A DNA stretch of 19,270 nt from Methanobacteriota archaeon. GTDB taxonomy: Archaea; Altiarchaeota; Altiarchaeia; IMC4; QMZM01. Numbering within the stretch: position 1 is the stretch's first letter; the number at the start of each line of letters is the position of its first letter. The stretch is taken from assembly GCA_021731385.1 (NCBI GenBank), contig JAKFXM010000207.1, positions 1-19,270 on the forward strand, in the 5' to 3' direction. Position numbers and translations under genes: made by a program. Of this stretch, positions 5,001 through 19,270 are shown piece after piece. The notes under the pieces were generated by a model. That model made no database searches, was not told where the DNA came from, and was given only the letters and a program-made list of their open reading frames with translations.

Positions 5001-5391
5001 CAGGTTTCCTCCTTACTACTGAAAAATCCTTATATTTGTTGTTCCAATACTCTATTGCATCTTTGTGCATACTAATATGTTGTTCAAGCCAGGGTGATCT
5101 GCTATTCTTATTTACAATTCCGTCGGGCTGAAATTCCTTCAGTTCGTTCTTCAAATTTATTATCTCCGTATCCGTAATTTTCTTTTCATTCAGATATTTT
5201 TTATAATTCGGATTTTCTTCATCATTGCTGGCTGAATCCATCCAGTACTTCAACTGCTCCTGCTTTTCATTCAGTACATTAAGTTTACTAATTACATCAA
5301 ATTCCCTTTTATAACCCCCAAGAAATTTTCTGTGCTTTTCAATGAGGATGTTCGATAATTGCTTTGGGGTTACTTTTTCAGGCGGAGTCAT
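4936..5391 (-). CDS. hypothetical hydrophilic protein
   Basis: 151 aa. ATG at 5389-5391 lies 27 nt downstream of the CDP-alcohol phosphatidyltransferase stop. The 3' end overlaps the next gene by 65 nt in a different frame. No recognisable motif. Confidence 0.35.
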   Translation of the reverse strand: MTPPEKVTPKQLSNILIEKHRKFLGGYKREFDVISKLNVLNEKQEQLKYWMDSASNDEENPNYKKYLNEKKITDTEIINLKNELKEFQPDGIVNKNSRSPWLEQHISMHKDAIEYWNNKYKDFSVVRRKPDERKGTEGKNKRPKARDRQKG

Positions 5392-5418: not shown

Positions 5419-6006
5419 TTATTTTTTATAATTAAAAACAAACCAGATCCTTTGTAATGCCGTTATATTTCCCAAAATTGCGGCAAGTTTGATTATATAT
5501 AAAAGCCATGAGAAATCAAAGTGTCCCAATAACATGCCGATGTAGATTAATGTCAAACGTTCACCCCTTTCTAAAATCCCACCCATTCTCCTATGATCTT
5601 CTGGTTCTGTTACAACCCCCCGATGGTCTGCATAAGCCCTGACAAATGAGGGCATAATAGCACCAAAGATCAAAAGAGAAATCCATAGTCCGGAAATCCC
5701 ATAGAAGAGAAGCCCCAAATATAACAAAATTTCAACATATCTGTCAACAATGCCATCAAGAAATGCACCAAAACTTGTTACACGCCCGGTAACCCTTGCA
5801 ACCGAACCATCGATTGCATCAATTATTCCTGAGATCAGGAAAAGGATGAGACCATAAATAAGGTGATGTGTGTACAATGCACCAAATCCTAAAACTGCAG
5901 GGATTATTGAGATAAGTGTCCATATATTCGGTGAAATTCCGAATCTTGAGAATATTATTCCAATCTTTATGGAAATTCCATCCGTATTGAATTTTGATTT
6001 GATCAT
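5419..6006 (-). CDS. CDP-alcohol phosphatidyltransferase family protein (archaeal polar-lipid head-group transferase)
   Basis: 195 aa. It carries the family signature D-x2-DG-x2-AR-x8-G-x3-G-x3-D-x3-D, seen here as DAIDGSVARVTGRVTSFGAFLDGIVD, within a multi-TM protein. SD GAGGG lies 7 nt before ATG at 6004-6006. The gene sits 9 bp downstream of the radical SAM gene. Confidence 0.7.
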   Translation of the reverse strand: MIKSKFNTDGISIKIGIIFSRFGISPNIWTLISIIPAVLGFGALYTHHLIYGLILFLISGIIDAIDGSVARVTGRVTSFGAFLDGIVDRYVEILLYLGLLFYGISGLWISLLIFGAIMPSFVRAYADHRGVVTEPEDHRRMGGILERGERLTLIYIGMLLGHFDFSWLLYIIKLAAILGNITALQRIWFVFNYKK

Positions 6007-7596: not shown

Positions 7597-8808
7597 TCAC
7601 TCATATCTCAATGCGTCAACCGGCTTAAGATTTGCAGCCTGCCTTGCCGGAAGAAAACCTGAAATACATCCGACAATGAAGGAAAACAATAAAGCGCCTA
7701 TGATGAGCTGTGGGGTGATTGCCGCCTGTACAATGGTCTGATCTAATTGCACCACTGCTATATATTCGACTATCTTGCCTAGCGTTGCTCCGATGAGGCA
7801 CCCTACAACTCCTCCGATCAGACCTATCAGGCCGGATTCCATCATGAACATGACGACTATGTTAGAGTTTTTTGCACCTATTGCTTTCATGACACCGATT
7901 TCTCTTGTCCTTTCAAGGACTGATGTATACATGGTATTCATTATCCCGACACCCCCGACGATCAGGGAGATACCTGCTATGCCCGCAACTATCGCCTGCA
8001 CTGCATCAAGTATTGTCCCAACAGACGACCTTACCTGTTCGAGTGTTATTACATTGAAGTCTTCTTCCCCTTTTTTAAGACCTCTATCCTGCCTCATTTT
8101 TTCTTTTATCTTATCTGCGACGACTTTTACATTATAGCCATCTTTGATTCGTATCATTATTTCTATGTAGTCATCTTTGACGCTGAATAGATTCTTTGCG
8201 TCTTCGGCAGTTATGTAGAGGTGGCTGTCATCGTCGGGGTTTCCTATCCTGCTTACAAATGCAGATACTGTGAATCTCCTATCATTGATGGTAATTTTGT
8301 CGCCTATCTTAAGCGGCTGATCAAATGCTTTTCCACCCCAGTATTCATACCCTACGGCTACCTTGTTAGTGTCCCCGGGCTTAAACCTCTGTTGCCCTTT
8401 TTCTATCTTGACCCCTGTGCCTTCCAGTAGAATGTCCTGCGTATCTCCACTGTCCACACCAACAACCATAGGATACACAATCTTATCCTGAAACTTTACC
8501 TTGGCTATCTTGCCGATAATACCCCCTGCGAGTTCAACGCCTTTAACGCCTTTTATAAGTCTTATGTCATGGTCTGTGAGTTTTGATGCTGCCCCTCCGG
8601 GGCCGAACAAACCCCCAGGCATGATGAATACGAGGTTTGGCCCAAGTATTGCGAACTGCTGGTTTATTGCATACTGCAAACCTTGGCCTAAGGAGATAAG
8701 AGATACTATGGCCGCTATCCCTATCACTATGCCTATGACCGTCAGCCAGCTTCTTATCCCCTTGTTCTTGATGCTTTTAAGCGATATATTCAGAAATTCA
8801 TCCAGCAT
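7597..8808 (-). CDS. ABC transporter permease, MacB/FtsX-type (large extracytoplasmic domain plus 4 TM)
   Basis: 403 aa. An N-terminal TM helix is followed by a domain of about 250 aa outside the membrane and a C-terminal FtsX-like 3-TM bundle ending KPVDALRYE. It is a paralogue of the upstream permease. Confidence 0.7.
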   Translation of the reverse strand: MLDEFLNISLKSIKNKGIRSWLTVIGIVIGIAAIVSLISLGQGLQYAINQQFAILGPNLVFIMPGGLFGPGGAASKLTDHDIRLIKGVKGVELAGGIIGKIAKVKFQDKIVYPMVVGVDSGDTQDILLEGTGVKIEKGQQRFKPGDTNKVAVGYEYWGGKAFDQPLKIGDKITINDRRFTVSAFVSRIGNPDDDSHLYITAEDAKNLFSVKDDYIEIMIRIKDGYNVKVVADKIKEKMRQDRGLKKGEEDFNVITLEQVRSSVGTILDAVQAIVAGIAGISLIVGGVGIMNTMYTSVLERTREIGVMKAIGAKNSNIVVMFMMESGLIGLIGGVVGCLIGATLGKIVEYIAVVQLDQTIVQAAITPQLIIGALLFSFIVGCISGFLPARQAANLKPVDALRYE

Positions 8809-8813
8809 TTTCG

Positions 8814-10037
8814 TTACCTGTATCTTAATGCATCGACTGGTTTCATATTAGCCGCTCTTATTGCAGGCATGTACCCTGAAATGCATCCTACGAGAAATGA
8901 AAACGCAAGTGCCCCTAATATTAAATCCGGTCCTGCATAGATGGCGAAATCCTTTATTCCATAGGACCTTACTACATTTTCAGCTATCAGGCTGGCGATG
9001 AGACCGAGTATTACCCCTATTATGCCCCCTACGAGACCAAGAAGTCCGGATTCCGCTATGAATATCAGGAGTATGTCGGAGTTTCTCGCACCGATTGATT
9101 TCATTATGCCTATCTGCCTTGTCCTTTCAATGACGGACGTGTACATGGTAGTCATTATGCCTATACCCCCAACAATCAGGGATATTGCGGCTATGCCGGA
9201 TAAAACGAGCGTGACTATGTTCAGTACGATCTTGAATGATGCAACGATATTTTCAGAAGTCTGAACAGAAAAGTCCTCCTCTTTTTCCTTAACGTGCCTG
9301 TGTTGTCGCAGGCGATCCTTAATCTTTTCTGCAACATCTGACGGTTCGGATCCCTTCTTTACCTTTACCGAGATCATTGAGTACTCGTCTGTTTTGTTAA
9401 AAAGATCCTTTGCAGTGTCAAGGGGTATTATTATCCTACTGGCTGTAAATGGGTCTCCGGTATCTTTATTTATGCCGACGACGTCGAATTCAACATCATT
9501 TATCTTAATCTTACTGCCTAATCTAATGTCTTTTTTAAACAGGCCTTCTCCAACATTAGGACCTATAATCGCCTTGTATCTATCGCTCTTCTTGAGATAA
9601 CCTCCCTTCTCAACCTTTGAGAAGTCCGAATCCCTAAGAAATGGCAGATACTCTGGGTCTGTTGATATCCCTACTACAGAACCAAACTTCTTTTTATTAT
9701 TGTATTCGATATCAGCTGTCACGAAGATTATACCAAGGGCCATGTCAACACCCCTCACCCTCTTGACGACGTCAACATCGCTTTCATGTAACTTGGCCGA
9801 AGTAAGCGTTCCGCCGGGAGGACCGCTCTGGAATCCCCCGCCTCCAGGGGTGACGATTATCCTATCACCACCTATAGCCTCAAACTGCCTATCTATGTAT
9901 TTCTGCAAACCCTGACCAAGGGAAATAAGGGTAACCACGGCAATTATGCCTATGAACACCCCTACCATTGTAAGCCAGCTCCTGACCTTCCTGTTGGCTA
10001 TGCCATCCAAGGCAAGCTTTAGATAATCGCTCCACAT
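8814..10037 (-). CDS. ABC transporter permease, MacB/FtsX-type (tandem paralogue)
   Basis: 407 aa with the same architecture and clear sequence similarity to the 7597-8808 product, for example the shared end ...MKPVDALRY. ATG at 10035-10037. Confidence 0.7.
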   Translation of the reverse strand: MWSDYLKLALDGIANRKVRSWLTMVGVFIGIIAVVTLISLGQGLQKYIDRQFEAIGGDRIIVTPGGGGFQSGPPGGTLTSAKLHESDVDVVKRVRGVDMALGIIFVTADIEYNNKKKFGSVVGISTDPEYLPFLRDSDFSKVEKGGYLKKSDRYKAIIGPNVGEGLFKKDIRLGSKIKINDVEFDVVGINKDTGDPFTASRIIIPLDTAKDLFNKTDEYSMISVKVKKGSEPSDVAEKIKDRLRQHRHVKEKEEDFSVQTSENIVASFKIVLNIVTLVLSGIAAISLIVGGIGIMTTMYTSVIERTRQIGIMKSIGARNSDILLIFIAESGLLGLVGGIIGVILGLIASLIAENVVRSYGIKDFAIYAGPDLILGALAFSFLVGCISGYMPAIRAANMKPVDALRYR

Positions 10038-13587: not shown

Positions 13588-16500
13588 ATGGCACAAAGCA
13601 AACCCCAAATTAGTTCTAAAGACAAGAAAAATTTTGCCAACCCGAAAAATTCCAAAGGAATTTTTGGGCCCATTGAGCCAGAGGCTCAATCGGGTGGCAA
13701 AATTTTTGTGCCCAATCAGAAACTTATAGTTTCTGATTCGGGCAAGAAGGAAAAATTTATTCTCTGGTTTGATGAAATCGGCATTGAGGATGTCCCTCTT
13801 GTAGGCGGAAAAAATGCATCCTTGGGGGAGATGATAAGAGAGTTAAGCAGCGAGGGGATAAATGTTCCAAACGGTTTTGCAATAACTGCCTATGCATATA
13901 ACTATCTGCTGAAAAATGCCAAGATTGAGGAGAAGATTAAATCCGCTCTCGCAGACCTTGACACACATAACATTAACAACTTAATGGAAAGGGGCAAAAA
14001 GGTCAGGGATATAATTCTCAAAGCTGAATTTCCGGAAGAACTAAAATCTGAAATAATAGATGCATATTCCCAGATGCACAAGAAATTTGGCTATGAAGGA
14101 AATCCGGATGTCGCTATTCGCTCAAGCGCAACTGCAGAGGATTTGCCAGATGCTTCTTTTGCAGGGCAGCAGGACACCTACCTCAACATCAGGGGTCCTG
14201 ATGCTGTGATTGATGCGTGTAAAAAATGTTTTGCAAGCCTCTTTACCGACCGGGCAATCTCGTACCGGACGGATAAGGGCTTCAACCATTTTGATGTCTA
14301 CCTTTCAATTGCCGTCCAAAAGATGGTCCGGAGCGATTCTGCGAGTTCCGGTGTCGTTTTCTCGATAGATACTGAGTCTGGTTTTAAGGATGTTGTTTTT
14401 ATAACGGGTTCTTACGGTCTTGGTGAAAACATTGTCAAGGGTGCAGTAAATCCAGATGAAATCTATGTATTCAAGCCAACACTGAAAAAGGGAAAGAAAC
14501 CAATTATTGGAAAGAAATTGGGGACAAAGAAGATAAAGATGGTTTATTCCGATACCGGAACTAAGAATATAGACACACCGGAAGAAGAGAGTAACAGATT
14601 CTGCATGACGGATGATGAGGCATTGAAATTGGCCGAGTGGACATGCATCATTGAGGATCACTACAGTAAAAAGGCAGGTTATTACAAGCCCATGGACATA
14701 GAATGGGCAAAGGATGGTGACGGAATAAAAATTGGATCTGGCAAATTATTCGTTGTCCAGGCAAGACCGGAAACAGTGCATTCTCAGAAAAATTCAAAGA
14801 TAATAAGGACATACATACTGAAGGAAACGGGCACGGTTCTTATTACGGGTCAGGCAGTAGGGGAACTTATTGGAAAGGGCGAAGCGAATAATATTGCAAG
14901 TTCTGAAGAGATAACGAAATTCAAAAAAGGTCAGGTTCTTGTAACAGACATGACTGATCCGGATTGGGAGCCGATAATGAAGATAGCATCTGCGATTGTT
15001 ACGAATAGGGGGGGCAGGACATGTTTCTCTGGAGATACTAAAATTTTAACTAACAATGGATTTATGACTATGAGTGAAATTTTTGAAAATCATGAAGGGC
15101 TGTTTGTTCCTTCTCTGAACAGAAATACCCTAAAAATAGAATGGAAGTCTATTCTAGCTGTAATGAAAAGACAAAGCGAGGTTATTGAAATTGAAACATC
15201 ATTAACAGGAAGGATGAAAGGCAACAGACTTAAACTTACACCAGACCATAAGATGCTCACATTTGAGAATAGGCAACTTGTTACAAAGGAAATAGATAAA
15301 ATCGTAGAAGAGAAAGAATACCTAACAATAATGGACGCCCTTCCAGCATTATCAAGCAGTTCTGAAAGAGAAAATGATCTTGCATATCTGCTGGGTGCAA
15401 TATCAACTGATGGCCATATATATCTAACAAAAACTCATGGAGAAGTTCAATTAATCCAAAAACCAACAAAGGAAAAAGAGGCTTTTATTAAAGAGGTTGA
15501 TGGTTGCTTAAACAAGGTTTACGGCAAAAGATTTAATCCGAAATTCAGAGAATTTCGGAGCTTCGATTTTCCTCTGGAAAATCGAATTAAGGTCAGCAAA
15601 AAGCAAGAGAGTGAAGGGAGTATTAGAGGAAAACCTTGTATAGGCTCTGCAAATGCTTACAGATGTTACGGTAAACAAATAGCTATAAGTTTATTAGAAG
15701 AACAACAAAATTTCATTCAGACACTCTTATATGCTGATGAGAGCCTAATTCTTAATTTCCTGGCAGGGGTTATTGATGGCGATGGTTCAATTAACGGGGA
15801 AGGAACAAGAATCAATATATATTGTTCAAAAGAAGGTCTTTTACAGCAAATAGTTGTTGGATGTCTTAGATTAGGCATACTCCTGCAGGTTACAAGAAAC
15901 AGGAATATTTACAATGTGCAAATCGTTGAGAAGTTAGATAGAATATTAGAATTTACGAAACGGGTTAAATGTCATAACAAGAAAAATTTCCTTTCAGGAA
16001 ATTTTTGTGTGGCTGAGCCCAAAGGGCTCAGACACGTGTCTGAGGCGAAGCCTCAGCCACATGCCCAATCAGCCTTAAAGGCTGATTCGGGTAAAAATGA
16101 TAGAAAGCGTATTGGGACAAGATTCTTTTCTGCAAGACAACTCCTTGATGATGTTAAACACAAGGTGAATTATAAGGGCAGAACTTTGCCGTGCATAGAC
16201 AAAAACCTGTTAATTGACTCTGAAAAAATTAAGAGGGATCTACTTGGATTGTGTCCTGAAAAAATTAAAAACGAAATTATGAAGATACTATCCTCAGATA
16301 CAAGAATGCAAAGAGTTAGGAAAACTGCCAATTTAGGGGTTCAGGATGTTTATAATATAACAATTGCAGATAATCACAATTATGTTGTTTTCACTGATAG
16401 ATACACACCAATAATTGTCAATAACTGTCACGCAGCAATAGTGTCAAGGGAACTCGGAATTCCATGCATTATCGGAACAGGTAATGGAACGGAAATTCTT

Positions 16501-17598
16501 AAATCCGGTAAAAAGGTTACAGTTTCCTGCGCAGAAGGCGAGATCGGGAGTGTCTATGACGGGCTTCTTGATTTTGAGATAAAGGAAATTGATCTTAAGG
16601 AATTGCCAAAGACAAAGACAAAGATAATGATGAATGTGGGGATGCCTGACAAGGCATTTGTCCAGGGTCAGATCCCATGTGATGGCGTCGGGCTTGCAAG
16701 GGAGGAATTCATAATAAATTCATACATAGGAATACATCCTCTTGCACTGCTAAATTATGACAAATTAAAGGAAACTGCAAGATCTGACAAAAGGATTGCC
16801 GATGTTATAAAAATTATAGACGAAAAAGCAAAGGGCTATGGGAACAAGGTTGAATTCTTTATTGACGAACTTGCAAGGGGAATTGCAAGGATTGCAGCAG
16901 GCTTTTACCCGAATGATGTAATTGTCAGATTCTCTGATTTCAAATCAAACGAGTATGCAAATCTTGTAGGCGGGTTCCTATATGAGCCGATGGAGCATAA
17001 TCCGATGATAGGATGGAGGGGTGCTTCAAGGTACTATGACAAGAATTTCAAGCCCGCATTTGGCCTGGAGTGCAAGGCAATCCTCAGGGTGAGAAATGAA
17101 TTTGGGCTTGAGAATGTAAAGGTAATGGTTCCATTCTGCAGGACTATTGATGAAGGTAAAAAGGTCATAGAAACAATGAGGGAATTTGGATTAAATCAAG
17201 GAGAGAATAATCTGCAGGTATATGTGATGTGCGAAATTCCAAGTAATGTTATACTTGCAGACAAATTTTCTGAAATATTTGATGGATTCAGCATTGGTTC
17301 AAATGACCTGACGCAACTTACCTTAGGACTTGACAGGGATTCATCTCTTGTTGCTCCCATATATGACGAGAGAAATGAGGCTGTGAAGAGGCTGGTGAAG
17401 CATGTCATAGAGGTTGTGCATAAACATAAGCCAAGAAGAAAGATAGGAATCTGCGGGCAAGCCCCTAGTGATCATGAAGATTTCGCCGCATTTTTGGTTG
17501 AGTGCGGGATTGATTCAATTTCCTTGAATCCTGATACAGTAATAAAGACAAGATTAAAGATCGCGGAAAAGGAGAGAGAGATTGGAATTTCTGCGTGA
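13588..17598 (+). CDS. ppsA: phosphoenolpyruvate synthase (pyruvate, water dikinase), intein-containing precursor
   Basis: 1336-aa ORF. The N-terminus ILWFDEIGIEDVPLVGGKNASLGEM matches the PpsA start. The phosphohistidine motif TNRGGRT/CHAAIVSRELGIPC is split by a 468-aa insertion, and the C-terminal PEP-utilising domain is present (NDLTQLTLGLDRDS). Extein length is about 868 aa, including a Lys-rich N-terminal extension of about 50 aa. An alternative GTG start exists at 13708. Confidence 0.85.
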   Translation: MAQSKPQISSKDKKNFANPKNSKGIFGPIEPEAQSGGKIFVPNQKLIVSDSGKKEKFILWFDEIGIEDVPLVGGKNASLGEMIRELSSEGINVPNGFAITAYAYNYLLKNAKIEEKIKSALADLDTHNINNLMERGKKVRDIILKAEFPEELKSEIIDAYSQMHKKFGYEGNPDVAIRSSATAEDLPDASFAGQQDTYLNIRGPDAVIDACKKCFASLFTDRAISYRTDKGFNHFDVYLSIAVQKMVRSDSASSGVVFSIDTESGFKDVVFITGSYGLGENIVKGAVNPDEIYVFKPTLKKGKKPIIGKKLGTKKIKMVYSDTGTKNIDTPEEESNRFCMTDDEALKLAEWTCIIEDHYSKKAGYYKPMDIEWAKDGDGIKIGSGKLFVVQARPETVHSQKNSKIIRTYILKETGTVLITGQAVGELIGKGEANNIASSEEITKFKKGQVLVTDMTDPDWEPIMKIASAIVTNRGGRTCFSGDTKILTNNGFMTMSEIFENHEGLFVPSLNRNTLKIEWKSILAVMKRQSEVIEIETSLTGRMKGNRLKLTPDHKMLTFENRQLVTKEIDKIVEEKEYLTIMDALPALSSSSERENDLAYLLGAISTDGHIYLTKTHGEVQLIQKPTKEKEAFIKEVDGCLNKVYGKRFNPKFREFRSFDFPLENRIKVSKKQESEGSIRGKPCIGSANAYRCYGKQIAISLLEEQQNFIQTLLYADESLILNFLAGVIDGDGSINGEGTRINIYCSKEGLLQQIVVGCLRLGILLQVTRNRNIYNVQIVEKLDRILEFTKRVKCHNKKNFLSGNFCVAEPKGLRHVSEAKPQPHAQSALKADSGKNDRKRIGTRFFSARQLLDDVKHKVNYKGRTLPCIDKNLLIDSEKIKRDLLGLCPEKIKNEIMKILSSDTRMQRVRKTANLGVQDVYNITIADNHNYVVFTDRYTPIIVNNCHAAIVSRELGIPCIIGTGNGTEILKSGKKVTVSCAEGEIGSVYDGLLDFEIKEIDLKELPKTKTKIMMNVGMPDKAFVQGQIPCDGVGLAREEFIINSYIGIHPLALLNYDKLKETARSDKRIADVIKIIDEKAKGYGNKVEFFIDELARGIARIAAGFYPNDVIVRFSDFKSNEYANLVGGFLYEPMEHNPMIGWRGASRYYDKNFKPAFGLECKAILRVRNEFGLENVKVMVPFCRTIDEGKKVIETMREFGLNQGENNLQVYVMCEIPSNVILADKFSEIFDGFSIGSNDLTQLTLGLDRDSSLVAPIYDERNEAVKRLVKHVIEVVHKHKPRRKIGICGQAPSDHEDFAAFLVECGIDSISLNPDTVIKTRLKIAEKEREIGISA
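15022..16425 (+). mobile_element. intein with LAGLIDADG homing-endonuclease domain inside ppsA
   Basis: The intein starts CFSGDTKILT (block A) directly after GGRT. Block B is LKLTPDH. The two LAGLIDADG motifs are LAYLLGAISTDGHIY and LNFLAGVIDGDGSI. Block F/G is VYNITIADNHNYVVF...IIVNN, followed by the extein CHAAIV. The insertion is 1404 nt (468 aa) and in frame. The penultimate residue is Asn rather than the usual His. Confidence 0.85.
15984..16087. repeat. hairpin-chain repeat element (copy A of conserved core) embedded in frame in the intein
   Basis: Hairpins are aaatttcc-tttca-ggaaattt (15984-16004), ctgagccc-aaa-gggctcag (16013-16031) and ctgaggc-gaa-gcctcag (16040-16056). The palindrome gacacgtgtc sits at 16031-16040, followed by ccacatg and then aatcagcc-ttaaa-ggctgatt (16067-16087). 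The segment is GC-rich relative to its flanks and encodes VAEPKGLRHVSEAKPQPHAQSALKADSG. Confidence 0.6.
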
Positions 17599-17642
17599 TT
17601 GAGTGAAATTTTGAGTAGGGTATCTAGATAAATTGAAGTTTC

Positions 17643-17691
17643 GACACCTTTGGTCCCGAACCGAATGTTTCGGTCTTGAACCGCAGGTGTC
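17643..17691. repeat. nested hairpin between ppsA stop and the next gene (possible terminator or structured 5' region)
   Basis: The outer stem is gacacct (17643-17649) pairing with aggtgtc (17685-17691). It encloses the inner hairpin accgaa-tgt-ttcggt (17660-17674) and an imperfect direct repeat ggtcccgaacc / ggtcttgaacc. cttgccctta follows. Confidence 0.4.
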
Positions 17692-17716
17692 TTGCCCTTA
17701 TAACGGAGGTGTTAGA

Positions 17717-18553
17717 GTGGATATTATCTTCCTTTCCGTAAATGATGTCCAGAGTTCAGAATACATAAGAGAGGGCAGCAAAAACCTGCTGAAGACAAGA
17801 TTCTGTACAGCAGATACAATTGCACTCTGCGGGAGGCTTGAGGACGCTGAGAGAACAAAATACGGTCCCAGGTTATGGATAAACGACGGGGAGAGATTCC
17901 CTGTCGTTATAGGAACCTTCAACAAGAATGTTCGGAGGGATGCGGAACAGATTGTTGACGAATTCAAAAAAAATAGCAAAAAAGAGACCTATGTCCTGAT
18001 CTATGGGAATCCCTATGAAACAGATAAGATCTACATAAATGTCAATCATGAGAATTGTGTCATTGTTGTGGATAAAGCAGTATATGAAAAATTCCACGAG
18101 ATGCGGAAACTTGCGGAGCAGCATGTGACAGAGCGACTTCGTCGCCCGAAAAATCGCAAGGCGATTTTTGGGTGTGGCGGAGAACCTTTGGTTCTCCGAC
18201 ATATATCTGAGCGATTTCATCGCTCAGCTATACCCAATTTGCCTCCGGCAAATTCGGGCTCTGACATATGTCCGAGAGGTTTTACCTCTCGGCCACATCT
18301 TACAAAGAAATCCGACACAAGTGAGAAAAAGATTGAGATAGTCAGGGAAAAAGGAATTTCCGGGGAAATTTCTGATTCTGATATAATAAATCTTATAAAG
18401 AAGGGGGATAAGAGTAGTGGGGTAAGGATTGATGAATTTCTAAAACTATTTGAAATTGAATCAAGGGCTAATATTGAAGAAAAAATCTATCAGATGGTTG
18501 AATCAGGCGAACTCTATGAGCCGAGGGCGGGATTTGTGAAGGTTGTTGAATAA
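17717..18553 (+). CDS. hypothetical protein with C-terminal winged-helix-like domain, carrying an in-frame hairpin-repeat insertion
   Basis: Start chosen at GTG 17717, which has the perfect SD GGAGGT at 17705-17710 and a 6-nt spacer. The six-frame ORF begins at an upstream TTG (17633) inside the hairpin region and is rejected. The K/E/I/N-rich N-domain and C-terminal helix-turn-helix-like segment (IINLIKKGDKSSGVRIDEFLKLF...) flank an R/P/G/S/C-rich insert of about 60 aa. Confidence 0.5.
   Translation: MDIIFLSVNDVQSSEYIREGSKNLLKTRFCTADTIALCGRLEDAERTKYGPRLWINDGERFPVVIGTFNKNVRRDAEQIVDEFKKNSKKETYVLIYGNPYETDKIYINVNHENCVIVVDKAVYEKFHEMRKLAEQHVTERLRRPKNRKAIFGCGGEPLVLRHISERFHRSAIPNLPPANSGSDICPRGFTSRPHLTKKSDTSEKKIEIVREKGISGEISDSDIINLIKKGDKSSGVRIDEFLKLFEIESRANIEEKIYQMVESGELYEPRAGFVKVVE
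18133..18299. repeat. hairpin-chain repeat element (copy B of conserved core) lying in frame inside the 17717-18553 CDS
   Basis: Six consecutive hairpins run in order: gcgac-ttc-gtcgc, aaaatcgc-aag-gcgatttt (18150-18168), ggagaacc-ttt-ggttctcc (18179-18197), tgagcgat-ttc-atcgctca (18208-18226), aatttgcc-tcc-ggcaaatt (18237-18255) and ccgagaggt-ttt-acctctcgg (18272-18292). The core gggctctgacatatgtc (18256-18272) and ccacatc are present. The frame has no stop codon and the segment is GC-rich relative to the surrounding gene. Confidence 0.6.
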
Positions 18554-18558
18554 AAAAC

Positions 18559-18942
18559 CTAAACCCTGCAAAACTCATTCCACACCCTGCCCATCCCTAA
18601 AACGTAAGAGGAGAATTCTTCTGAAATTCTTAGTTCATGAACCCCTCTGCTCTTATTATAGACCTTCTCCACCATTCCGGCATTTCTAAGCCTTTTCAGC
18701 ATGTTATGATATATGCTTTGCGTTATGCCCTTTTTTGTGCAGTAATTCTCCCAGCCCTTAACGCTGTATGGTGAGTCTGTCCTGCCCCATTCCTTTATAT
18801 GGCTCAGGAATTCCTTAGATATTTGGACAAGTTCAGGATTTTTCCAGAATATCTGTCTTAGAATGTGTTCTATGCTGTCTGGTGGTTCTTTTGGTTTGAA
18901 TTCAATCTTCAGTTTTGGTTTTTTCTTTATTATTTCCTTCAT
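18559..18942 (-). CDS. small putative winged-helix DNA-binding protein
   Basis: 127 aa. ATG at 18940-18942 is preceded by an AT-rich, TATA-like region (18943-19030). An HTH-like segment GITQSIYHNMLKRLRNAGMVEKV is present. It lies convergent with the upstream gene. Confidence 0.45.
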   Translation of the reverse strand: MKEIIKKKPKLKIEFKPKEPPDSIEHILRQIFWKNPELVQISKEFLSHIKEWGRTDSPYSVKGWENYCTKKGITQSIYHNMLKRLRNAGMVEKVYNKSRGVHELRISEEFSSYVLGMGRVWNEFCRV

Positions 18943-19035
18943 ATCTTATATTATCTCATCATGATATAAATATAAAAATAATTCAATATTTCATATAATT
19001 TGAAATAACATACAAAAAAATAAGAATATAAACAA

Positions 19036-19060
19036 CTGTCGGCTAAAGCCGACAGTTTTT
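19036..19060 (+). terminator. stem-loop followed by T5 (intrinsic-terminator-like)
   Basis: ctgtcggc-taaa-gccgacag (19036-19055) is followed by ttttt (19056-19060). It sits in the AT-rich spacer upstream of the minus-strand 18559-18942 gene, so orientation and function are uncertain. It could also be the first hairpin of the adjacent repeat element. Confidence 0.3.
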
Positions 19061-19068
19061 ATGCGCCT

Positions 19069-19270
19069 GAATCTGCCCCATATATTGAACTGCCCATTAA
19101 TCCGAGACCAGAGGTCTCGGAGCTTCGATGTGGCAGAGCCCTATGGGCTCTGACATATGTCGGAGGCATAGCCTCCGCCACACACCAAATGTGTCGAATT
19201 ATATGAAACTCCTAAAGGAGTTTCATAGATATGAATCTGCTTTGCAGATTCATATTAAAAGGGGCAGATT
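19069..19270. repeat. TIR-bounded hairpin-chain element (copy C of conserved core), MITE-like, truncated by window end
   Basis: The terminal inverted repeat is gaatctgcccc (19069-19079) pairing with ggggcagatt (19261-19270, running to the window end). Internal hairpins are ccgagacc-aga-ggtctcgg (19102-19120), cagagccc-tat-gggctctg (19134-19152), ggaggc-ata-gcctcc (19162-19176), gaaactcc-taaa-ggagtttc (19205-19224) and tgaatctgc-ttt-gcagattca (19232-19252). The palindrome gacatatgtc sits at 19152-19161, followed by ccacacacc. The core matches copies A and B. Confidence 0.6.

Follow-up and report, generated by a model that had tools for sequence, protein, structure and literature searches.

Nested hairpin doublets resembling small mobile palindromic repeats in the genome of an uncultivated Altiarchaeota archaeon

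The contig JAKFXM010000207.1 from an uncultivated Altiarchaeota archaeon was analyzed over its whole length of 19,270 nt (hereafter the window). It carries ordinary archaeal housekeeping genes, encoding an OMP-decarboxylase/HUMPS-family protein, the large subunit of RFC, a radical-SAM enzyme and NurA, along with genes for two MacB-type permeases and their ATPase, a phosphoenolpyruvate (PEP) synthase split by an intein, and an RPA32/Stn1-like protein. Between these genes, and in part within them, lie chains of short hairpins. An earlier note on this DNA, made from the letters alone, had described three copies (A, B and C) of a hairpin-associated core and likened their organization to Rickettsia palindromic elements (RPEs) and to bacterial arrays of repetitive extragenic palindromes (REPs) such as bacterial interspersed mosaic elements (BIMEs). 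The analysis reported here supports this comparison, with in-frame insertions, empty sites in relatives and polymorphism between strains, and suggests that the chains are probably made of selfish, non-autonomous mobile palindromes similar to REPs and RPEs.

The 17-nt core, GGGCTCWGACAYRTGTC, was found exactly as quoted in that note at positions 16024, 18256 and 19145, always on the + strand; 0.01 occurrences were expected from shuffled sequences, and none of 200 shuffles reached four. A scan for perfect stems of at least 7 bp with loops of 3–6 nt gave 68 raw matches in the window, representing about 35 distinct hairpins, versus 7.2 ± 2.6 raw matches in dinucleotide shuffles. Nine hairpin clusters were delimited, at 30–62, 2529–2796, 2818–2919, 13627–13742, 15535–15588, 15973–16092, 17643–17691, 18124–18297 and 19032–19270, with very stable, nested minimum-energy folds. 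They total 1157 nt, so that the palindromic fraction, earlier put at more than 5%, was measured as 6.0% of the window. Coding sequence holds three of the nine clusters and a single hairpin from another. Hairpin density was 1.45 per kb in the window, 2.8 in locus L003 of a second assembly of the same species (GCA_017973895.1) and 5.8 in L001, an Altiarchaeota contig from a JGI metagenome, as compared to 0 to 0.6 in nine other Altiarchaeota loci and about 0.05 in shuffles.

The core family proposed earlier is real, but the core is not a unit of its own: it represents the junction between hairpin 1 and the central palindrome of a two-hairpin module. In this module of 54–60 nt, TGTGG-(CNGAR stem-loop)-ACAY-RTGT-(stem-loop)-CCACA, two units stand tail to tail with their TGTGG heads facing outwards, the second being the first one inverted. 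Each unit consists of TGTGG, a 7–9-bp stem starting with CNGAR, a loop of 3–5 nt and ACAY; its flanks lengthen the stem by a 3-bp GTG/CAC clamp past a fixed G.A mismatch, both units share the palindrome ACAY-RTGT, and the ends of the module form a 5–6-bp inverted repeat, RTGTGG/CCACAY. Modules A and C, which hold copies A and C of the core, are 54 nt long, and two further modules, B and B', 60 nt. Module A (16008–16061, + strand) reads TGTGG-CTGAGCCC-aaa-GGGCTCAG-ACACGTGT-CTGAGGC-gaa-GCCTCAG-CCACA, and module C (19129–19182, + strand) TGTGG-CAGAGCCC-tat-GGGCTCTG-ACATATGT-CGGAGGC-ata-GCCTCCG-CCACA.

Covariation was assessed in 13 TGTGG units, seven from the window, two from L001 and four from L012, an Altiarchaeota contig of another metagenome-assembled genome. 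Paired cells amounted to 96% versus 76% in shuffles, changes on both sides were seen in 8 of 12 stem pairs, and the covariation score was 0.54 (shuffles, 0.17). When the 3' partners were shifted out of register by 1–3 columns, pairing fell to 15–46%. Stem position 2 takes T-A, A-T, G-C and C-G, positions 1, 3 and 4 being invariant. All 13 units sit in tail-to-tail doublets, and 12 start with (T)GTGG, the remaining one having a degenerate TATAG. As judged from this alignment, the TGTGG units are best described as one family with a selected, covarying structure.

A second family, F/R, is made of hairpins clamped by CCC/GGG and marked by a fixed one-base bulge, arranged as CCCG-stem-GGG^CCC-stem-CGGG. 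In form F (CCCG..GGG) the bulged base is a G in the 5' arm, and in form R (CCC..CGGG) a C in the 3' arm, R being the reverse complement of F. No F hairpin of the window stands alone: an R hairpin follows at once, the two meeting at GGG^CCC, and the resulting doublets measure 54–59 nt. The window contains 11 CCC-clamped hairpins, eight recovered by scan and three by eye, and the same scan of 200 shuffles found none; together with four TGTGG modules, this is the local density per 19 kb. A third type of hairpin, K, begins with (CAAG)AAAAAT and was found in the window at 13627 and 15982, as well as in the Altiarchaeota loci L005 and L009. The hairpin chains are read as nested insertions of at least three doublet families, which refines the earlier description based on the core.

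Copies A and B lie in frame within coding sequence, as claimed before, A in the intein of the PEP synthase and B in open reading frame (ORF) 17717–18553 (+ strand; protein P0001). The latter showed no Pfam match, and its AlphaFold model comprises a confident OB fold (residues 1–140), a linker and a confident C-terminal winged helix (residues 213–278). Foldseek matched it to RPA32, Stn1 and Pyrococcus abyssi RPA chains with E values down to 8e-8. On this structural prediction, the protein probably serves as middle subunit in the single-strand-binding complex of archaea, and the family appears widespread in Altiarchaeota. Forty homologues were found, labeled as Candidatus Altiarchaeales or Altiarchaeota and mostly of 206–221 amino acids versus 278 here. 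The excess corresponds to an in-frame insertion of 174 nt in the linker (18124–18297, + strand), which encodes a 58-residue segment, VTERL..SRPH, modeled with a per-residue confidence (pLDDT) below 50 between the two confident domains. This segment is missing in 16 of 18 aligned homologues, so that the comparison of orthologues proposed in the earlier note did reveal empty sites. They are visible in the DNA too: where the closest other species has gagcag-tat-cttaca, the window has gagcag-CA(TGTGA..174 nt..CCACA)T-cttaca. Other homologues showed unrelated length variation at the same position. Peptides encoded across the insertions include GLRHVSEAKPQPH and ICPRGFTSRPH.

Copy B is not a simple copy: it represents the right half of a module into which two further elements are nested. 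The 174 nt add up exactly from 60 nt of module B (TGTGA..CCACA), 54 nt of an F/R doublet and 60 nt of module B'. The F/R doublet (18145–18258, + strand; F at 18145–18172, R at 18233–18258; 54 nt without B') sits at GTCG^CTCTG, within the 3' arm of unit 1 of module B, and taking it out restores a perfect 9-bp stem, CAGAGCGAC/GTCGCTCTG. Module B' (18173–18232, + strand; TGTGG..CTATA, with degenerate ends) sits in turn exactly at the junction GGG^CCC of F and R. In the 99.6%-identical strain represented by L003, module B' is missing with exact boundaries, the filled site being TTTTTGGG-TGTGG..CTATA-CCCAAT in the window and the empty one TTTTTGGG-CCCAAT in L003. No base can be assigned to both flanks of B', which makes a target-site duplication impossible, and the F/R doublet allows a duplication of 1 nt at most; the ends of these two elements, where the earlier note had suggested looking for such duplications, show none beyond this single possible nucleotide. 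Replication slippage as the source of the 60-nt difference was rejected, there being no direct repeat or microhomology at the junctions.

The weight of this polymorphism is best appreciated against the overall similarity of the two strains. The loci of GCA_017973895.1, L003 and L014, are 97.8–99.7% identical to the window over 14.2 kb, and just two indels separate them, the intein and the 60 nt of module B'. The latter takes out a whole doublet, and the presence or absence of a complete module in strains so closely related argues for recent mobility.

The PEP synthase gene (13588–17598, + strand) carries a LAGLIDADG intein of 468 amino acids at 15022–16425, with two insertions on the + strand. 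Insertion 1 (15535–15588) is a 54-nt doublet, TCCGAAATTC-aga-GAATTTCGGA, GC, TTCGATTTTCC-tct-GGAAAATCGAA, which encodes the 18 amino acids NPKFREFRSFDFPLENRI. Insertion 2 (15973–16092, boundaries ± 3 nt) is about 120 nt long and combines a K-type hairpin (15982–16006), module A and an R-type hairpin (16064–16091). Eleven homologous inteins, 41–63% identical and hosted by PEP synthases or RtcB proteins from a range of archaea and bacteria, were compared; all 11 lack both segments, of 18 and about 40 amino acids. Every insertion within coding sequence, whether of 54, 120 or 174 nt, and the nested 60-nt module as well, has a length divisible by three. In both the 120- and the 174-nt segment, five of the six frames contain stops and that of the host does not, which argues that these segments are translated and not spliced out; length and absence of stops had been named in the earlier note as properties to verify. 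Splicing of the segments at bulge-helix-bulge motifs was rejected, as no such geometry was seen in the folds and the host frame alone is open in the 120- and 174-nt insertions.

Nesting is also apparent in the same gene. A K-type hairpin, (CAAG)AAAAATTTTGCCA..TGGCAAAATTTTT, occupies 13627–13707 and carries in its loop an F/R doublet of 54 nt (F at 13641–13668, R at 13669–13694). GTG joins it to an R-type hairpin, CCC-AATCAGAAACT-tat-AGTTTCTGATT-CGGG, at 13711–13742. The K-GTG-R arrangement at 13627–13742 is the paralogous empty form of the K-G(module A)TG-R composite at 15982–16091 in the intein. With module B' at an F^R junction and module A within K-GTG-R, three of seven independent modules lie at the junction of an older doublet, directly 5' of CCCAAT.

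The intein itself is polymorphic: in the L014 strain, whose upstream sequence is 99.7% identical, the gene lacks the intein (allele P0085, 868 amino acids). Compared to L014, 27 single-nucleotide polymorphisms (SNPs) fall within about 240 nt directly 3' of the intein site (16443–16680), versus one over the remaining 1 kb of the gene. This cluster has the look of a tract co-converted during intein homing or allelic recombination.

Taken with the empty sites, the further copies found outside the window, in L001, L012 and a protein from another contig, bear on an alternative that the earlier note had spelled out, namely that the segments are native sequence. A lack of other copies, or conservation of the inserted residues in orthologues, would have spoken for it; neither was found, and the comparisons show the hairpin segments to be insertions. 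In L012 a TGTGG module occupies the spacer between the tRNA-Pro and tRNA-Thr genes, the orthologous spacer in L010 being 32 nt long and without a module. Module A, together with its flanking hairpin types, recurs near the N-terminus of P0086, a MoxR-type ATPase encoded on another NCBI contig, with 26 of 37 residues identical; VAEPxGLRHVSEAKPQPHAQS is conserved and the apices of the flanking hairpins differ.

Searches on a broader scale delimited the distribution of the elements. A covariance model of the TGTGG unit (R1) recovered units in the window and L003, L001 and L012 alone, out of 138 kb from 13 Altiarchaeota sources, and the distribution across Altiarchaeota is patchy within this small sample. 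The core pattern with the CCACA anchor had no match in 185,579 species-representative genomes, which shows that this set lacks the source species and that no distant genome in it has the exact core. A tRNA scan of the window was negative. In JGI metagenomes the core pattern gave one true match (L001) and one chance match in GC-rich coding DNA (L002), and viral contigs gave no match to the module pattern or to the F/R junction pattern. A 535-residue concatenate of chain-encoded peptides, compared to a protein database, returned P0085 and P0086; this search was insensitive, as it missed P0001 and P0002, which account for 58 and 38 residues of the query.

That the chains could be artefacts of assembly or amplification, such as chimeric inverted repeats, was considered, as contigs of the second assembly break at or beside hairpin clusters. 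The same elements are present base for base in two independent assemblies, related ones occur in the JGI contig and in another metagenome-assembled genome, and long reading frames are kept open by the elements; with four independent assemblies, an artefact can be considered excluded for practical purposes. The contig ends of GCA_017973895.1, in L014 and L003, correspond to about 2576 and 17626 of the window, at or beside hairpin chains, and the sequence of L003 upstream of window position 17625 is unrelated to the window. It seems that the repeats cause metagenome assemblies to break up, or else lie at junctions that vary between strains.

Copy C belongs to an element of 207 bp (19067–19270, its last 3 nt, beyond the window, being visible in L003), which contains module C and hairpins at 19101–19121, 19202–19227 and 19229–19255. 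Its ends form a perfect 13-bp inverted repeat, CTGAATCTGCCCC at 19067–19079 and GGGGCAGATT(CAG) at 19261–19273, and in this respect the terminal inverted repeat described earlier does exist. It may represent the two arms of a split hairpin instead of a transposon end, since the intact hairpin 19229–19255 inside the element has the same arm sequence.

This element is what most resembles a classical miniature inverted-repeat transposable element (MITE), that is, a deletion derivative of a DDE-type insertion sequence (IS) with terminal inverted repeats, moved by cut-and-paste with target duplication. Its perfect 13-bp ends are flanked by TGCGC and TGCGT, a four-in-five match with a chance of about 0.016, and TGTGG modules also end in an inverted repeat. 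In a 2024 census, no other archaeon equaled Ca. Altiarchaeum hamiconexum in MITE density (146 per Mb), an observation given without characterization (PMC11602168), and no other archaeal phylum reaches the median IS content of Altiarchaeota (PMC13343696). Against this, module B', for which alone a near-identical strain offers an exact empty site, cannot have a duplication, and the F/R doublet in module B leaves room for one nucleotide at most; inverted ends of only 5 bp are found in modules, the arms of the copy C element match an internal hairpin, and its flanks in L003, TGCAC and TGCGT, agree at only three of five positions. An origin as classical MITEs would suit the copy C element alone, is contradicted by module B' and is regarded as unlikely.

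Palindromes might also be made on the spot, by template switching or hairpin-primed repair synthesis at forks or breaks and by gene conversion between arrays, no transposase being required. This would account for some 35 perfect stems of diverse sequence, for loops that differ even between 99%-identical strains, for the position of new elements in loops, arms and dyad centers of older palindromes, and for the variable stem position 2, which is almost always complementary, as if one arm templated the other. Against it, the non-palindromic frame (TGTGG, CNGAR, ACAY, the G.A mismatch and the bulge) is constant across unrelated loci and three assemblies, and identical units recur in different genes, which requires copying from a template element; in addition, three SNPs between the two strains break stems and remained uncorrected. 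Local generation without a copied template was accordingly judged quite unlikely.

The strong covariation of the TGTGG units could also be expected of functional RNA or DNA motifs kept by selection, such as leaders, terminators, processing signals or protein-binding sites, which would not be mobile. Consistent with this, several chains (those at RFC, at PEP synthase and in L005 and L009) stop 10–15 nt before a probable start codon, modules of L012 are in tRNA spacers, and many hairpins have runs of A5 or T5, oligo-T being an archaeal termination signal. Yet the same units are found in both orientations on one strand, copies lie inside an intein and a protein linker, and the elements are missing in orthologues and differ between near-identical strains. 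Chains are also denser in SNPs than the remaining sequence, with 6 in 515 nt versus 68 in 13709 nt, an Rfam scan of the window found nothing, and no bulge-helix-bulge or kink-turn geometry was seen by eye in the folds. Taken together, selection for a host function is a very unlikely explanation for these elements. The kink-turn was set aside because of the single G.A mismatch and the absence of a 3-nt bulge.

Doublets in other Altiarchaeota species deserve mention in this context. Hairpin doublets starting with CAAG-AAAAA were observed at 5568–5625 of L005 and at 1050–1105 and 3186–3248 of L009. Their second hairpins are near-identical (GATAAAGT..ACTTTATC) and they are placed 10–25 nt upstream of a start codon or of a tRNA-Lys gene. 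They may reflect a conserved leader or promoter-proximal position, or belong to the same element family.

A single R-type hairpin, CCC-AAAAACTGC-ctt-GCAGTTTTT-CGGG, is located at 34–61 and has an identical 28-nt copy at 808–835 of L001. The intergenic nested chain at 2529–2796 includes an F/R doublet (2550–2575 and 2576–2605), hairpins 2648–2668 and 2672–2692 within an outer stem, GGAATTTGC/GCAAATTC, hairpins 2740–2760 and 2769–2793, and the long-range arms AAGGTTGATCAAAA/TTTTGATCAACCTT. Beside such GC-rich chains, at 2529–2549 of the window and 985–1021 of L001, overlapping A/T-rich palindromes, CTTTTTCTTTT..AAAAGAAAAAG, were observed, which may be another repeat type or a termination signal. 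The chain at 2818–2919, annotated within the RFC large-subunit ORF, is composed of a hairpin (2820–2841) and an F/R-like doublet (2863–2892, with one mismatch, and 2893–2919). A nested hairpin at 17643–17691, with an outer stem GACACCT/AGGTGTC around CCGAA..TTCGG, lies upstream of the RPA32-like gene, is identical in L003 and matches neither doublet family. Finally, the stem of a hairpin at 19034–19057, AACTGTCGGC-taaa-GCCGACAGTT, is broken by one SNP in L003.

The stop-free hairpin chains lengthen the N-termini of predicted ORFs, at 2797–2931 and 13588–13750 of the window. The chain at 2818–2919 is upstream of the probable true start of RFC, M46 (ATG at 2932), and the K-type hairpin at 13627–13707 lies in a 52-residue N-terminal extension or leader of the PEP synthase. 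Because RFC homology begins at M46 and PEP synthase homology at residues 52–55, these two chains are probably non-coding. The hairpin at 13711–13742 falls within even the shortest plausible PEP synthase ORF, which would have its GTG start at 13708. Lengthening of the N-terminus by a hairpin chain may apply to the MoxR-type ATPase P0086 as well.

Other features were noted in the window and in related loci. The tandem paralogous MacB/FtsX-type permease genes, at 7597–8808 and 8814–10037, give rise to the direct repeats D1 and D2 (183 nt, 75% identity), which are unrelated to the hairpins. An ORF of 127 amino acids at 18559–18942 on the - strand adjoins the copy C element, with no established link to the repeats; it is assigned to PF27297 (AF_0843) in the gene table of L003, and the Pfam scan performed here gave no match at E ≤ 0.01. 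The tRNA-Ala(GGC) gene has an intron-like insert in L010 (13558–13645) and L009 (about 5165–5260), not in L012 (5585–5658); for the L010 gene, ARAGORN reported 'tRNA-???' with 88 nt. Arrays or associated genes of CRISPR, retron or integron cassettes were not found, and these systems were set aside.

The anatomy of the modules and the covariation of their stems are shown directly, as are empty sites, a difference between strains, nesting and absence of duplication. These observations describe discrete palindromic doublets that were copied repeatedly, insert without duplication, favor earlier copies as targets and retain pairing by compensatory change. In the scheme favored here, the replicating entity is a doublet of two short inverted hairpins, 54–60 nt long and belonging to one of at least two doublet families. 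New copies land without target-site duplication, often in a junction, loop or arm of an older doublet, and repeated landings build up nested chains, which accumulate freely in intergenic DNA; within genes, the survivors are those in frame, free of stops and in flexible regions. Most likely the elements have no host function, being selfish and tolerated.

As to how they move, structure-specific enzymes acting on single strands include the TnpA of IS200/IS605, the REP-associated tyrosine transposases (RAYTs) acting on REPs, and the integrases acting on attC, and insertion and excision by such enzymes are scar-free (PMC2817692, PMC3116915). The substrates that they read are of the type seen here, in which a clamp of 3 bp and a constant mismatch or bulge accompany a stem that is paired but free in sequence. 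By analogy, the doublets might move as single-stranded DNA hairpins, cut and rejoined in trans by a structure-specific HUH/Y1 enzyme similar to RAYTs or to IS200/IS605 TnpA, a proposal made with much less confidence than that of mobility itself. More speculative still is the idea of a first REPIN-type system (REP doublets forming hairpins) in Archaea, in which a dedicated enzyme, either a RAYT-like Y1 transposase or a new structure-specific nuclease or ligase, would propagate the doublets through single-stranded DNA. Recognition would rely not on sequence but on the clamp with its mismatch or bulge, older copies would be hit at their junctions and loops, which leads to nesting, and perfect stems would be regenerated by copying one arm from the other. 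The elements would then be a steady source of linker peptides in essential replication proteins, such as the RPA32-like protein, and even in inteins.

A number of observations temper the proposal of REP/RPE-like mobile palindromes. No transposase or RAYT gene is found among the genes of the window or in the gene tables of L004 and L014, although no dedicated transposase search was made. The modules have no conserved tetranucleotide on their 5' side, their left flanks being TTTG, GGG, GCA, TCGA, GGAA, TGAA and AGAA, which departs from the canonical IS200/IS605 rule, and the two hairpins of a doublet differ in stem and do not pair with each other as in classical REPINs. The 60-nt polymorphism may be an insertion or a precise deletion, and the ends of module B' are degenerate. 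Elements most often measure 54 nt, a length divisible by three, which makes in-frame position weaker evidence of selection than it seems. The copy C element, with its 13-bp inverted ends and four-in-five direct repeat at the flanks, looks more like a classical MITE. The repeat-rich lineage is represented by only about 23 kb (the window and some 4 kb more), and REPINs have been stated to be undetected in archaea (bioRxiv 10.1101/2021.07.10.451892). Membership in the REPIN-RAYT systems, which are defined by a cognate single-copy RAYT gene flanked by repeats and by tens to hundreds of copies in a genome, is unproven, and the elements are placed among small palindromic non-autonomous repeats that behave like REPs and RPEs.

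Small palindromic repeats of the REP kind are a class of element not yet characterized in archaea. An archaeal family with empty sites, strain polymorphism and a grammar of nesting provides a concrete place to seek the mobilizing enzyme in this domain, and such elements would explain the very high density of 'MITEs' recorded for Altiarchaeum. The phenomenon known from RPEs, in-frame insertion of palindromes, would extend to archaeal replication proteins and to an intein. In practical terms, the chains break metagenome assemblies, inflate N-terminal ORF predictions and are possible strain markers.

Among known systems, REPs, BIMEs and REPINs offer the closest parallels. REPs are likewise short hairpins (20–30 nt) with a 5' GT[A/G]G tag, shared here by the TGTGG family only, the F/R family carrying CCCG. 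Both also have stems with a constant mismatch or bulge, apparently move as inverted doublets, gather in arrays, show no evident target duplication and occasionally form in-frame intragenic dimers and clusters. GTGG-tagged REPs exist in P. fluorescens SBW25 (PMC2817692), and inverted REP doublets have been described as the mobile unit (PMC2817692, PMC3116915). Di Nocera et al. reported tail-to-tail and heterodimeric REP doublets, clusters, and stems with mismatches or bulges; intragenic REPs, known but rare, include in-frame dimers encoding 20–30 amino acids and clusters encoding 43–82, some of them in replication or repair genes (PMC3733652). The doublet types, clusters, irregular stems and in-frame dimers of that description all have counterparts in the window. 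Unlike REPs and REPINs, the elements of the window have an archaeal host, doublet hairpins that lack mutual pairing and no identified RAYT; their TGTGG tag is itself base-paired through the GTG/CAC clamp, they are heavily nested, and three clusters and one hairpin of another are in coding sequence, whereas REPs are almost exclusively extragenic.

RPEs resemble the present elements in being palindromes inserted in frame in unrelated housekeeping genes, adding a peptide in tolerant regions and leaving empty sites in orthologues (PMC10969869). RPE-4 and RPE-6 are REPs of the CGTC type (PMC3733652). Classical RPEs differ in their size of about 100–150 bp, their CGTC tag and their bacterial hosts, as opposed to nested doublets of 54–60 nt with TGTGG or CCCG, and there is no sequence relationship. 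Mitochondrial double-hairpin elements (DHE), repetitive hairpin-forming elements (RHE) and the GC clusters of yeast mitochondria are also tiny elements of one or two hairpins. Most are intergenic, some interrupt genes for rRNA or proteins, lineages differ in how abundant they are, and the flanks of the Allomyces elements show no duplication (PMC2800124). By contrast with the repeats described here, they reside in organelle genomes, and their sequences are unrelated.

Integron attC sites have a conserved frame around an interior that is variable yet paired, and extrahelical bases mark one strand of the folded, single-stranded substrate. The elements of the window have a similar frame around a sequence-variable paired interior, but attC sites flank gene cassettes beside an integrase gene, and nothing similar is present here. 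The palindromic elements of Haloquadratum called PATEs derive from IS200/IS605-type elements and are defined by hairpins and not by terminal inverted repeats. Of the traits expected of such derivatives, hairpins and absence of duplication were seen in the present elements and a conserved left-flank target was not, three of seven modules being just 5' of CCCAAT. Together with the SM1-4 elements of Sulfolobus, PATEs and other archaeal MITEs, listed in PMC10969869, share with the hairpin doublets their short length, non-autonomous character and archaeal host; they are, however, about 100–400 bp long and recognizably derived from insertion sequences, and are not reported as nested doublets or as in-frame insertions in genes.

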